Positions 1-38,024 of a stretch of DNA of 38,024 nt are shown here, piece after piece. The stretch lies in the IMG/VR virus record IMGVR_UViG_2703718860_000027. One strand, given 5' to 3'. Under the pieces are notes generated by a model that was not told where the DNA came from, did no database searches, and saw only the letters and a list, made by a program, of their open reading frames with translations. The DNA is from a virus. Its lineage: Duplodnaviria; Heunggongvirae; Uroviricota; Caudoviricetes. The position numbers were made by a program, and so were the translations under genes. Within the stretch, counting starts at the first letter, position 1. Each line of letters opens with the position of its first letter.

Positions 1-27
1 TGTCTGGAGATTCAGGGGGCCAGTCTA
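1..27. repeat. IS2-type terminal inverted repeat (TGTCTGGAGATTCAGGGGGCCAGTCTA)
   Basis: The first 27 nt match my recollection of the outer IS2 terminal repeat (reverse complement of TAGACTGGCCCCCTGAATCTCCAGACA). Recollection only; needs an ISfinder check. Confidence 0.45.
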
Positions 28-29
28 AT

Positions 30-425
30 ATGTCTAACACTAGTGCTAATTTTGAGATGACTGGAATTTTGCTGGGGCAGGAGCTTCGTAAACGTAAAAC
101 TCCTCAGGAAAAAATCGCCATTATTCAGCAGACAATGGAACCCGGTATGACGGTGTCCCATGTGGCGCGTTTGCATGGTATTCAGCCCAGCCTGTTGTTT
201 AAGTGGAAAAAACAATATCTGGAAGGAAGTCTCACTGCTGTTGCTGCCGGAGAGGATGTCGTTCCTGCCTCAGAACTGGCTGCCGCTATAAAACAAATAA
301 AAGAGTTACAGCGCTTGCTGGGTAAGAAAACCATGGAAGTTGAGATCCTCAAAGAAGCGGTGGAGTATGGTCAGTCGCGAAAATGGATAGCGCATGCGCC
401 CTTGTTGCCAACGGACAAGGAATAA
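30..425 (+). CDS. IS3-family transposase OrfA (IS2 InsC-like, helix-turn-helix)
   Basis: 131-aa ORF with strong similarity to IS2 InsC (e.g. [61 protein letters not shown]). The start may instead be ATG at 57. Confidence 0.85.
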
Positions 426-1264
426 CCCTGGTAAGCCGTATTCTGGGCGTGTCGCGTGCGCAACTGGCACAACGGATGAAAACATCTGGTAATAAGCCGA
501 ATAAACGTCGTCGCAGATGTGATGAGGCTGCGGATGCGGAAGTGTTAGCACGTATCCTTGATATCATCAGCGATATGCCGACATATGGCTATCGTCGTGT
601 CTGGGCCATTCTCAGACGACAGTCCCGTAACAAAGGAGTGCCGTTCGTGAATGCAAAGCGCGTTTATCGGATAATGAGCGAAAATAACCTGTTGTTGTTA
701 CATGACAAACCTTCACGGCCGCAGCGGGAACATAAAGGCCGAATATCGGTGAAGGAAAGCGACCAGCGCTGGTGTTCCGATGGCTTTGAGTTCGGTTGTG
801 ATGATGGCGCAAAACTGCGTGTCACGTTCGCACTGGACTGTTGCGATCGTGAAGCCATAGACTGGGCCGCAAGCACGGGAGGTTATGACAAAGCAACGGT
901 GCAGGATGTCATGTTAGGAGCAATAGAAAAACGCTTTGGCGATAAAGGAGCGGAACGGCCAATCCAGTGGCTGACTGATAACGGTTCGGCTTATACAGCT
1001 CATGAAACACGGCAGTTCGCCAGAGAGTTGAATCTGGAGCCCTGCACGACGGCAGTCAGTAGCCCTCAGAGCAATGGAATGGCAGAAAGGTTCGTGAAAA
1101 CGATGAAAGAAGACTACATCGCGTTCATGCCGAAACCGAATGTAAGAACGGCATTGCATAACCTTGCAGTGGCGATCGAGCATTACAATGAAACCCATCC
1201 GCATAGTGCGTTAGGTTATCTCTCACCAAGGGAATATCGACGTCAGCGGGTAACGTCAACTTAA
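383..1264 (+). CDS. IS3-family transposase OrfB (IS2 InsD-like, DDE integrase domain)
   Basis: 293-aa ORF in the -1 frame relative to orfA. Shares conserved motifs with IS2 InsD ([48 protein letters not shown]). Confidence 0.85.
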
Positions 1265-1523
1265 GATACAACGACTGTCTGAATATCGTGGGTCAAGGAC
1301 ACTTTCCTTGAGAACAATAATTTTATCTTTATGTGAATCTCATTTTTTATAATGATGTCAGATGATTGAAATGCTAAATTATATCTGAATCAACTTTTCC
1401 TTTGCTAAAGGTATCGAAATAACTGCAAGGCTGTATTTTGTAATTGCCAATTTAAAAATGTCAATTTGCTTTTAATTATGTTTTTGTAATAAGTTTGAAG
1501 ACGCAAAAAATAATATAATAACA

Positions 1524-1556
1524 AAAATCCTCCAGCCTTGTAGGCCAGAGGATAAA
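1524..1556 (-). terminator. Rho-independent terminator downstream of the integrase gene
   Basis: On the minus strand, an 11-bp stem (ATCCTCTGGCC / GGCTGGAGGAT, two G-U pairs) with loop TACAA is followed by TTTTTG, about 45 nt after the int stop. Confidence 0.5.
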
Positions 1557-1597
1557 ATACTTAATTGAGGAAAACATCAGGGAAAAGTATTTCTGAC

Positions 1598-2782
1598 TTA
1601 ACTTTCCCGGCTGGAGAGTGAATCAATGTAATCAGCGTACCATTGCATCATTTCACGGCGGCCATCGAGATACAGGGCATGATTATAGGTACCCCTGATG
1701 GAATTTTTATCCACATGAGCTAACTGCATTTCAATCCAGGCGGAATTAAAGCCTTGTTCATGCAGAATTGTACTCATGGTGTGTCTGAAACCGTGCCCTG
1801 TGAGTCTTCCCTTATATCCAAGTAATTCAATTACTTGGTTAATGCTTTCCTTACTAATTGGTTTGCGGGGATCATTTCTACCGATAAAGACTAGGGGATG
1901 ATGTTTTGAGATTGGTTCAAGCTGCTTAAATAGCATAATGACCTGCTCAGAGAGCGGCACAATATGAGGTCGCTTCATCTTCATTACTTCTGCCGGGATC
2001 TCCCACAATTTTGTCTCAAAATCGATATCTTCCCAGCGTGCAAAACGCAGTTCTTGTGTTCGTACGCCGGTTAACATAATGATCTGAGTAGCTGTCTTAG
2101 TGATTATACTTCCGGTATAACCCGCCAGATCGTTGAGGAAGTGGGGAAGTTCATTAGCAGTAAGAAAGGGAAAATGTACTTTTTTCGGTGTAGCTAAAGC
2201 ACTGGCAAGATCGGGGGCTGGGTTATAGTCTGCCCGGCCAGTAACAATTGCATAGCGGAACACCTCACCACAGCGCTGGCGGACCTTGCGCATTTTCTCC
2301 AGAGCTCCACGTTTTTCCATTTTACGCAGTGCTTCCAGTAACTCCATTGGTTTGATTTCGGCAATAGGGCGCTTGCCAATGTAGGGAAAAATGTCTTTTT
2401 CAAAGGTATCAATGATTTCATCACGATAGCGTAATGACCACCGATCGGCTTTTGACTGGTGCCATTCGCGAGCAATAGCCTCGAACGTATTTTTCAGACT
2501 CATTTGCTGCGCGATTTTTTCTTCCTTTTTTGCCTCCCCTGGATCGCCTCCAGCAGCGAGGAGTTTCCTGGCTTCACTGCGTTTCTCGCGAGCATCGGCT
2601 AGCGTTACATCGGGGTATACGCCAATAGAAAGCATCTTTTCTTTACCAGCAAAGCGGTACTTCATGCGCCAGTATTTAGAACCATTAGTGTTAATCAGTA
2701 GATACATACCGCCGCCATCAGCAAGCTTATAGGGTTTGTCTTTGGGTTTTGCGGTTTTCACTTTGATATCGGTTAATGCCAT
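1598..2782 (-). CDS. int: P4-family tyrosine integrase (site-specific recombinase)
   Basis: 394-aa ORF with a P4-type integrase N-terminus (MALTDIKVK...YKLADGGGMYL) and C-terminal catalytic motifs (HGFRHT, RGTYNHA). It lies immediately downstream of the tRNA-Sec 3' end. Confidence 0.92.
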   Translation of the reverse strand: MALTDIKVKTAKPKDKPYKLADGGGMYLLINTNGSKYWRMKYRFAGKEKMLSIGVYPDVTLADAREKRSEARKLLAAGGDPGEAKKEEKIAQQMSLKNTFEAIAREWHQSKADRWSLRYRDEIIDTFEKDIFPYIGKRPIAEIKPMELLEALRKMEKRGALEKMRKVRQRCGEVFRYAIVTGRADYNPAPDLASALATPKKVHFPFLTANELPHFLNDLAGYTGSIITKTATQIIMLTGVRTQELRFARWEDIDFETKLWEIPAEVMKMKRPHIVPLSEQVIMLFKQLEPISKHHPLVFIGRNDPRKPISKESINQVIELLGYKGRLTGHGFRHTMSTILHEQGFNSAWIEMQLAHVDKNSIRGTYNHALYLDGRREMMQWYADYIDSLSSRES

Positions 2783-3081
2783 GACATCCTCCGGCTTTTG
2801 ATGAATTCATGTTCCTGAGGGGGATTTCTGCCAGTAACTAACCTGATACCCCCAATACACCCCTTGTATAACAAAGATGTTGTTAAAAGCCGTTGTTATA
2901 TATCACATTTTTCCTATTATGGGGGTGCTGGTATTTCAATAGGAAATAACACCCCCTAAAGTACCCCCAAAAGAAACTTGATACGGGGTGAAGTAGGTTG
3001 ACCTCTGGATACAAATAAATACTGATATACAAGGGATTAGAAGAGATTTATTGACATTGGGAGAGTTCAGAAGAGGTAAAC

Positions 3082-3176
3082 TGGCGGAAGATCACAGGAG
3101 TCGAACCTGCCCGGGACCGCTGGCGGCCCCAACTGGATTTGAAGTCCAGCCGCCTCACCGGAGACGACGATCTTCC
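3082..3176 (-). tRNA. selC: tRNA-Sec (selenocysteine tRNA)
   Basis: The reverse complement of 3082-3176 matches the 95-nt E. coli selC sequence as I recall it (GGAAGATCGTCGTCTCCGGTGAGGCGGCTGGACTTCAAATCCAGTTGGGGCCGCCAGCGGTCCCGGGCAGGTTCGACTCCTGTGATCTTCCGCCA). Confidence 0.95.
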
Positions 3177-3468
3177 GCGCCTCGATTGCTACATGGAGGC
3201 GGGGCGCATTATAGCTACTTCCTTGAGTTTCTACATCCCCCAGATCAGTTTTTTCCGCCTAATACACGCAGCGTATTATCACGAAAGCATTATAGTTCAT
3301 ATAAAACCCATATTTTACAATGATATATGAGCGGAATTAACGCTACCACGATCACATAAAACAAGAATCATAAATTAATAACCAGATATCGGAATATTCG
3401 CTCTCACAGGGATGGTTTACAAAATGCGTTATCGGTCTCAGCACCCCTATAGCATCAAGGAAAAGCAG

Positions 3469-11940: not shown

Positions 11941-12807
11941 ATGAAAAAGCGTCGGAAGGAACCGGAAACGCTACGTGAACACTGTCGCCATATTTTTGGT
12001 GATGAGCCGCCAGTGCTCTGTGTATGGGAAACGGAATTTGATTACGCAGATGCCGAACTCAAGGCGCTGGCGGCTAAAGAGTGGCAGCAGATCAGCGTAT
12101 GGGATTTGAGTGCTTACTATGTACTCAATCTCGTTTATAACGAACCGATGCAAATAGAGTTGTTTCGCTATCTGTTTCCGCTCTGCCTGGCGCAATGGCA
12201 TGAAACCGTTTTAGCTGGCGGTTATGGTGATCACTTCGAAGAATCCTTAATGAAGGCATTGTGTCGGCCCTATCTCTGGCAGGAGATGATGAATGCTTCC
12301 CAACGCCAGCAGGTACGGCAATTTTTACTGGACACCGCGTTGCAGCGTATGGATAACGAGCGTGGTTTCAATAACGTTCTTTGCTGGCTGGCGGTGTTCA
12401 ATACTCTGGGTGGGGCCGCGCCGTTAATTCATTCTCTCTGGTCGCGCTGGTGGGCGCTGGATACGCCAGGAAAAGCGGTGTGTGCTATTCAGTATGCCGC
12501 GCATCTAATTTATCCCATAGAAGCCAATCCGTTATGGTCGCAAGAATGGATAGGCTGGGGGCATCCATTAGGCCATAAAGATGGCTGGTCCTCTGATAAT
12601 CGCGCTTTTCTTCGCCAAATGTTAACACCTGAAATGATTGTGGCTGGCGTACAGGCAGCGGCTGAAATTCTGCGTGGTGAACCGGAAGGCGCAATGGCGG
12701 CGCGAATTGCACAGGATGCGTATGAGGCAATGGATATCCTCACTATCCAGATTGAAGATTTACTGCGTGACTTGTCTTGTGATGAGTCTGGTCATGCGTT
12801 GGAGTAA
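11941..12807 (+). CDS. Hypothetical Trp-rich cytoplasmic protein of unknown function, inserted between gltS and recG
   Basis: 288-codon ORF whose ATG lies 2 nt after the gltS stop and whose 3' end overlaps the last recG codons on the opposite strand by 16 nt. GC content and codon usage look host-like. No transmembrane segment and no motif I can assign. Confidence 0.6.
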   Translation: MKKRRKEPETLREHCRHIFGDEPPVLCVWETEFDYADAELKALAAKEWQQISVWDLSAYYVLNLVYNEPMQIELFRYLFPLCLAQWHETVLAGGYGDHFEESLMKALCRPYLWQEMMNASQRQQVRQFLLDTALQRMDNERGFNNVLCWLAVFNTLGGAAPLIHSLWSRWWALDTPGKAVCAIQYAAHLIYPIEANPLWSQEWIGWGHPLGHKDGWSSDNRAFLRQMLTPEMIVAGVQAAAEILRGEPEGAMAARIAQDAYEAMDILTIQIEDLLRDLSCDESGHALE

Positions 12808-25698: not shown

Positions 25699-26154
25699 TT
25701 ACTGACGACCAGAGTGACCAAAGCCGCCTTCACCGCGGTCGGTGGCGTCGAAATCTTCCACCAGATTAAATTCAGCCTGTACTACCGGAACAAAAATCAT
25801 CTGGGCGATGCGTTCGCCAGGTTGAATGGTGAAGCTGTCCTGACCACGGTTCCACACGGAAATCATCAACTGGCCCTGATAGTCAGAATCGATCAATCCT
25901 ACCAGGTTACCAAGCACGATACCGTGCTTATGTCCCAATCCGGAGCGCGGCAGCATCATTGCCGCCAGTGAAGGATCGGCAATATGAATCGCCAGCCCGG
26001 TCGGAACCAGCGTAGTGTCACCCGGAGCCAGTTCTACGGCGTCGTCGAGACAGGCACGCAGGTCAAGTCCGGCAGAGCCAGAGGTGGCATAAGTCGGGAG
26101 CGGAAATTCCTTCCCAACGCGCGGGTCCAGAATCTTAACGTCGATTTTTTTCAT
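25699..26154 (-). CDS. dut: dUTP pyrophosphatase
   Basis: About 151 aa ([34 protein letters not shown]...) matching Dut. The start overlaps the coaBC 3' end. Confidence 0.93.
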
Positions 26155-31870: not shown

Positions 31871-31910
31871 CAGTATTCAGGTAGCTGTTGAGCCTGGGGC
31901 GGTAGCGTGC
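31871..31910 (+). promoter_or_regulatory. JUMPStart element with ops site (GGCGGTAGCGTG) in the waaQ leader
   Basis: The exact 12-nt ops motif is at 31898-31909, inside a conserved JUMPStart-like context, about 50 nt upstream of the waaQ start. This is the known RfaH recruitment site for the waaQ operon. Confidence 0.85.
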
Positions 31911-37757: not shown

Positions 37758-38003
37758 ATGGTTGATAAAATAATATTTACGGTTACTCCTATTTTTTCAA
37801 TTCCTCCTCGCGGAGCGGCTGCTGTTGAAACGTGGATGTATCAGGTTGCTCAGCGTACCAATTTTCCAAATCGTATTGTTTGTATCAAAAATCCAGGATA
37901 CTCAAATTACACCTTTGTTAATGATAATTGTAGTATTCATAGGGTTGGATTCAGTCGCATATATAAGCGGTTATTTCAAAAATGGACAAGACTTGATCGG
38001 TAA
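37758..38003 (+). CDS. N-terminal part of a WaaD/WaaK-like LPS core glycosyltransferase; possibly truncated or frameshifted
   Basis: 81-aa ORF (MVDKIIFTVTPIFSIPPRGAAAVETW...) that looks like the N-terminus of a GT-B core glycosyltransferase but stops at 38003. One alternative frame stays open to the window end. Confidence 0.4.
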   Translation: MVDKIIFTVTPIFSIPPRGAAAVETWMYQVAQRTNFPNRIVCIKNPGYSNYTFVNDNCSIHRVGFSRIYKRLFQKWTRLDR

Positions 38004-38024
38004 TGACTCCAACTTATTGATAGT

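Follow-up and report, generated by a model that had tools for sequence, protein, structure and literature searches.

The integrase-proximal edge of a probable LPA-type selC island in a 38,024-nt stretch of Escherichia coli DNA

LPA (Locus of Proteolysis Activity) is a selC island whose reference sequence is reportedly that of Escherichia coli producing Shiga toxin (STEC), O91:H- strain 4797/97 (AJ278144), attributed to Schmidt et al. 2001. It has been described as a 33–37 kb island of STEC negative for LEE (locus of enterocyte effacement), and it encodes EspI, Iha and BtuB (PMC9729726, PMC6455142, PMC6920203, PMC6174562). One survey detected LPA in 59 out of 367 LEE-negative STEC genomes, its criterion being at least 70% coverage of, and identity to, AJ278144 (PMC6455142). 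Here we analyse a stretch of 38,024 nucleotides (nt), called the window, at whose left end a P4-type integrase gene and an insertion sequence (IS) stand beside selC. An earlier note, made from the letters alone, had seen in this end the edge of a selC-associated genomic island, and selC, the integrase gene, the IS and, in near-identical complete genomes, cargo to the left and a distal repeat have all been borne out. With a probability of about 0.9, positions 1–3105 are the integrase-proximal (attL-type) edge of an LPA-type selC pathogenicity island in a LEE-negative STEC; an island edge of this kind is already known, since it is the type published as LPA.

The window was compared with three complete STEC chromosomes, 2012EL-2448, 2015C-3121 and 2018-166, and the island itself was examined in 2012EL-2448 and 2018-166. 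All three are 100% identical to the window over positions 1–3400, IS2 junction included, and 2018-166 equals the whole 38 kb but for one single-nucleotide polymorphism (SNP, at 26125) and the final 26 nt, an IS1 tip. The features on which the argument rests are these (att, attachment site; aa, amino acids):

3082..3176, minus strand: selC, the gene for tRNA-Sec (anticodon UCA) and the integration target (ARAGORN; Rfam RF01852, 83.8 bits)
3082..3105, minus strand: att core, the 24-nt selC 3′ end TTCGACTCCTGTGATCTTCCGCCA, with a distal copy next to setC
2783..3081, minus strand: integrase-proximal att arm (from the positions of GGGGGT motifs)
1598..2782, minus strand: int, a full-length P4/CP4-type tyrosine integrase of 394 aa (Pfam; alignment with P4 Int; RefSeq WP_001218908.1, intact)
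1302..1597, minus strand: AT-rich spacer downstream of int, 99.9% shared with many other selC islands
1527-1553, in the spacer: terminator-like hairpin after int (pattern scan)
28..1301, plus strand: IS2-group element of the IS3 family, related to ISEc48, whose right inverted repeat ends ...GGACA at 1301 (Pfam, NCBIfam)
30-425, plus strand: orfA of the IS2-like element (HTH_Tnp_1; Pfam)
383-1264, plus strand: orfB of the IS2-like element (rve; Pfam)
1..27, minus strand: IS2 tip, the terminal 27 nt at the left inverted repeat end, which form the edge of the apparent contig (from the matching complete genomes)

The selC gene of the window is identical to that of K-12 and is the only tRNA gene found there by ARAGORN; an Rfam scan of the whole window matched selC itself at 3082–3176 and nothing within 1–3081. 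The neighbourhood after selC does differ from that of K-12, where yicT/setC lies directly next to selC. A direct repeat of the selC 3′ end had been predicted at the far side of the island, and such a repeat exists: in both complete genomes examined, a 23-nt copy, TTCGACTCCTGTGATC-TCCGCCA, which is TTCGACTCCTGTGATCTTCCGCCA minus one T, adjoins setC. The 16-nt block at 3090–3105 is repeated exactly at this distal end, and, when the selC-setC interval of K-12 is aligned with gaps allowed, K-12-type sequence is seen to resume at the repeat and to continue into setC with 99.9% identity. Because of the deleted T, the distal repeat is visible only in this gapped alignment; when the flanking loci were searched for the selC 3′ end by anchored exact matching, no match at the distal end exceeded 10 nt. 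Internal att copies, which would be a sign of tandem islands, were sought inside the island with up to 4 errors and none was found, which argues that a single pair of repeats bounds the whole mosaic. The distance between the repeats is 72,493 bp in 2018-166 and about 67.6 kb in 2012EL-2448.

What does the island carry? The accessory cargo that had been placed to the left of the window is annotated in the 100%-matching complete genomes, and from these near-identical chromosomes the cargo of the source strain can be predicted. Leftwards from selC lie int, an IS2-like element interrupted by IS2 and then, beyond the window, four small hypothetical genes, espI, which encodes a serine protease autotransporter, an AraC-family regulator, iha, and btuB with a cobalamin riboswitch. 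A LacI regulator with phosphotransferase system (PTS) IIA, IIB and IIC genes comes after btuB, followed by a cluster of IS remnants. The farther part holds first a partial type VI secretion system (T6SS) cluster, in which ISEc8 splits tssB; the CP4-44-like module that follows extends to just before setC and comprises an AlpA-family gene, YfjI, a GTPase, Ag43, antirestriction and RadC genes, YeeT and CbeA/CbtA. The AlpA-family gene belongs to PF05930, a family that includes the CP4-57 regulator AlpA. Rox, the excision factor of a Shigella island, is reported to be 66% similar to AlpA (PMC2704930). The T6SS genes of the island are tssB, tssC, tssK, tssL, hcp, tssH, vgrG, tle1, two copies of tli1 and a PAAR gene (L005 1–19000 / L006 36464–37200), and no tssM, tssA or tssE–G is annotated among the island genes. 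In 2018-166 tssL is frameshifted, and in 2012EL-2448 an IS1 replaces the vgrG-tle1-tli1 end.

Assignment to the LPA type follows from where the element lies and what it carries. It adjoins selC, which in the matching genomes holds this island instead of LEE, and espI, iha, btuB, the AraC-type regulator and the PTS genes are all RefSeq-annotated in two 100%-matching genomes, outside the window. The STEC background was read from strain names, and LEE was judged at the selC site alone. Several points weigh against the assignment. From repeat to repeat the island measures 67.6–72.5 kb, around twice the published size of LPA, and membership is judged by location and annotated gene content. The GC content of the whole island (49.4%) barely differs from that of the flank (50.0%). 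The window stops within IS2, with cargo and distal repeat outside the source sequence, and the IS1 tip at its right end means that the source is not identical to any complete genome. Finally, the footprint that excision is predicted to leave, the selC body joined to the one-T-deleted end, had 0 matches in metagenome contigs, a weak negative given that a control scan found the remnant in just 7 contigs. As to size, the composite island as a whole is larger, and it is its selC-proximal half that has the LPA gene content. The assignment means that the source strain is a LEE-negative STEC with the LPA virulence island, including the EspI protease and the Iha adhesin, which is useful in typing; beyond annotation, the feature is of little consequence.

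The integrase is intact and P4-type, as the earlier note had it. It contains three Pfam domains, Arm-DNA-bind_3 (DUF4102; PF13356, 2.8e-30), Phage_int_M (PF22022, 4.6e-36) and Phage_integrase (PF00589, 5.5e-28), aligns with P4 Int from end to end (residues 1–387, 45% identity, E 2e-115) and has all the catalytic residues: R241, K270, H330, R333, H356 and Y366. These residues align with their P4 Int counterparts except for K270, which stands beside a 12-residue gap and was also placed by the K-x4-VPL pattern of XerD. In the two 100%-matching genomes, the integrase sits at a tRNA gene 3′ end, with the 24-nt selC end on one side and the 23-nt distal copy on the other. A protein search of a phage database for a named integrase closer than that of P4 gave best matches of about 51% identity (Klebsiella and Erwinia phages, Sf6 IntS), and no phage origin could be assigned. 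The segment that comprises int and its arm (1302–3081) is widespread: it is present at a coverage of at least 80% in 1235 out of 5426 complete E. coli genomes (around 23%), and 921 complete-genome records match it at an identity of at least 99%, including the ST131 strain EC958, ATCC 8739 and avian pathogenic E. coli strains. The selC-associated integrase of O157:H7 has about 90% nt identity to that of the window.

Between int and selC, the arm carries a tandem GGGGGT motif, TTTGGGGGTACTTTAGGGGGT, at 2951–2971 on the minus strand, around 115 nt inside the selC-proximal core, and further copies of the motif at 2847–2855 and 2921–2929. A counterpart, TTTGGGGGTTCTTATGGGGGT, lies around 55 nt inside the distal core, and this 21-nt motif was invariant, amid varying surrounding bases, in all seven independent metagenome contigs that contain the distal junction. 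Constancy of a motif within varying flanks is expected of a protein-binding site, and it also fits Int, which has an arm-binding domain, and P4, whose attP core is annotated with arm repeats around it. The TTTGGGGGTNCTTNNGGGGGT motif is therefore a predicted arm-binding site of Int. The motif pair has been reported earlier at the ends of GIselC17584/1 and of the avian BEN2908 selC island (PMC6174562). The int promoter presumably lies within the same arm (2783..3081); a promoter scan gave no higher a number of sites than shuffled sequence.

The IS beside the integrase had been described as an IS2-group element. The group was right; the element is not IS2 itself, and positions 1–27 belong to a separate, genuine IS2. 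Like IS2 and ISEc48, it has overlapping orfA (helix-turn-helix, HTH) and orfB (DDE rve domain) reading frames, in a −1 frame relation, and TG...CA ends similar to the inverted repeats of IS2, all of which are features of the IS2 group of the IS3 family. Identity with IS2 is ruled out by scores below both NCBIfam cut-offs, 411.6 versus 597 bits and 201.9 versus 229 bits for the IS2 TnpA/TnpB models, and by the 62% aa identity of its OrfB to that of IS2. The nearest named relatives are ISEc48-annotated copies, with about 88% nt identity; RefSeq gives the element no name and annotates a programmed frameshift in it. At the position that corresponds to the A6G frameshift site of IS2, the element has only CGAAAATGG. 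Copies at an identity of at least 99% are found on large STEC plasmids, including those of O91 strains. This copy differs from IS2 and ISEc48 in being split by IS2 and in having no target duplication: comparison with an uninterrupted relative, strain BE2-5, in search of a target-site duplication of the IS2-like element revealed none, the left flank being ...CTCTTC and the right one CTTTCC.... In BE2-5, homology to the window ends exactly at 1301/1302, with none across the IS, and just 18 genomes contain the IS–int–selC junction. The IS2-like element is the seam at which LPA-specific cargo meets the int module that is widely shared. The abrupt stop of homology, together with the missing target duplication, points to formation of this seam by IS-mediated rearrangement or assembly rather than by simple insertion.

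In the 100%-identical genome the genuine IS2 is 1331 bp long (L001 18697–20027) and has a 5-bp ATATG duplication on both sides. In the matching complete genomes its insertion separates orfA of the IS2-like element from the left inverted repeat, the first 67 nt or so of that element, this repeat included, lying beyond it (L001 18630–18696). Genomes without this insertion match the window only from position 28 on. At the other end of the window, the last 26 nt (37999–38024, GGTAATGACTCCAACTTATTGATAGT), which are an IS1 terminal repeat, fall around 240 bp into a gene, beginning near 37758, for an N-acetylglucosaminyltransferase of the lipopolysaccharide (LPS) core. IS1 is missing from this position in 2018-166, the closest complete genome, and the source strain may have an LPS outer-core gene disrupted by IS1. 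Since both ends lie a few bases inside multicopy IS, the window looks like a whole short-read draft contig, broken at repeats on either side, and the cargo is consequently out of view. It illustrates cleanly how the cargo of an island is concealed when draft contigs break off at IS copies.

How would the island have come to lie at selC? From what is established for P4-type integrases, recombination by the P4/CP4-type integrase would have taken place between the 3′ part of selC and an attP carried by the element. selC would thereby have received a new, intact 3′ end from the element, and its original chromosomal end would have been pushed to the other side of the island, beside setC, where one T would have been lost since. 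We infer that the chromosome's own selC end is the copy with the deleted T and that the island supplies the intact one. The same remnant is found under another occupant. In strain STEC435 (NZ_CP129348.1), whose flank is 100% identical to the window over 24.9 kb, selC is occupied by a P4-like satellite of about 10.7 kb (L010 22555–33330) with primase, Icd-like, delta and psu genes and an AIPR-family gene next to its own integrase, WP_001218969.1. Its distal repeat beside setC, TTTGACTCCTGTGATC-TCCGCCA, has the same T deletion; it also reads T for C at position 3, and the crossover is accordingly placed 3′ of this change. A different occupant of selC on the same backbone, with the same one-T-deleted remnant, shows that selC is a live site with recent turnover.

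Can the unit still leave the chromosome? Int-mediated excision of the whole unit is plausible because it has every part required: an intact int, the exact 16-nt core and arm motifs at both ends, and a candidate directionality factor of the AlpA type. That excision still takes place at a detectable frequency is, in our estimate, an even bet. A crossover within the 16-nt block would join selC to the one-T-deleted end and leave the 8-bp acceptor stem without one base, so that excision would probably produce a defective, non-functional tRNA-Sec. The PAI I pathogenicity island, flanked by the same 16-bp repeat, reportedly excises from selC in strain 536 and damages selC when it does so (Blum et al. 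1994), and a defective tRNA-Sec upon precise excision would echo this classical case. The lost base in the chromosomal selC remnant has maybe not been spelled out before and could help to explain island stability. The most specific form of the proposal, namely that the composite of around 70 kb, with LPA cargo, T6SS remnant and CP4-44-like Ag43/toxin-antitoxin module, rather than the classical 33-kb LPA, moves as one Int/AlpA-excisable element and leaves selC one acceptor-stem base short, so that a cell losing the island would lose selenoprotein synthesis with it and this inherent cost would stabilise the island, we regard as unlikely.

The explanation that survives best beside the excisable island, and a serious rival to it, is that the island is real but fixed: a decaying, IS-riddled mosaic inherited by vertical descent, with an idle integrase, in which selC changes come about through homologous recombination of the flanks. 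It competes only with the claim of excisability, and we give it a little less than an even chance. The one-nt deletion in the distal core speaks for it, because precise excision would yield a defective selC end and excisants would be counter-selected, as does the lack of an excision footprint in the metagenomes. The many IS elements and pseudogenes, among them the T6SS split by ISEc8, and the junction IS without target duplication fit decay equally, and a one-T-deleted remnant under a different occupant is explicable by flank recombination as well. A fixed island is harder to reconcile with a full-length integrase that has kept its catalytic residues, with an exact 16-nt core at both ends, with arm-type motifs maintained against diverging flanks and with the presence of an AlpA-family gene; the excision reported for PAI I of strain 536, another selC island, weighs against it as well.

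A second explanation, which we consider very improbable, is that in the source strain int and the IS are an isolated remnant, the cargo having been removed or moved by an IS2-mediated deletion or inversion. IS2 copies can indeed mediate deletions, the contig ends 27 nt into one, and at least one IS1 insertion sets the source apart from each of the complete genomes. On the other hand, contigs that end at a multicopy IS are an expected artefact of assembly, and cargo lies across the identical IS2/IS junction in all three complete genomes that have it. The remnant is unlikely above all because a single SNP over 38 kb separates the window from 2018-166, which holds the full island. That the element is a P4-like satellite or other prophage instead of a pathogenicity island can hardly be upheld: for all that its integrase is P4-type and a true P4-like satellite occupies selC in a strain of the same backbone, the 72 kb of the matching genomes contain no primase, capsid-size, psu/delta or structural phage genes, the cargo consists of virulence and transport genes and IS elements, and the integrase of the STEC435 satellite is a different protein; a P4-type satellite is excluded by this gene content, no P4 genes being present in the island of the matching genomes.

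Elsewhere in the window, an open reading frame of 288 aa (11941–12807, plus strand), with no Pfam match and annotated by RefSeq as a hypothetical protein (WP_000747337.1), fills a gltS-recG gap of about 850 bp; the K-12 gltS-recG interval is just 169 bp. Strains 2012EL-2448 and 2015C-3121 depart from the window at around 22558, between dinD and yicC (L001 42558–43400), where they have, by match coordinates, an extra 10.5 kb or so with a tRNA-Tyr-like gene, a Mor-family activator and a DUF927 protein. This insert, which the window does not have, resembles a small integrated element. A JUMPstart RNA element was detected by Rfam at 31871–31909 (plus strand), upstream of rfaQ, where the waa operon would be expected to have one.

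Compared with known systems, the locus shares with P4 a three-domain integrase, integration at a tRNA 3′ end, arm repeats that flank the core and a small HTH partner of the AlpA/Vis type; P4 targets leuX, whereas the island targets selC and is devoid of P4 replication and helper-exploitation genes. Closer to it are the other selC islands. GIselC17584/1, the avian BEN2908 island (AGI-3 or EPI-I), SHI-2, LIC and PAI I 536, all with the same integrase module, have the same 16–24-nt selC repeat and the same GGGGGT motif pair (PMC6174562), and imperfect selC repeats of 23 bp have been described for LIC (PMC6455142). Their cargo is wholly different past window position 1301; beyond the seam, the selC island of BE2-5 continues with TPR, LacI, MFS and GH31 genes instead of LPA cargo. 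With LPA itself, the locus has in common the selC site in LEE-negative STEC, the CP4-type integrase beside selC and the espI, AraC, iha, btuB and PTS cargo. Unlike LPA, the unit described here continues with an IS cluster, followed by a T6SS remnant and an Ag43/CbtA-CbeA module, and in the three closest genomes an extra IS2 lies within the junction IS.

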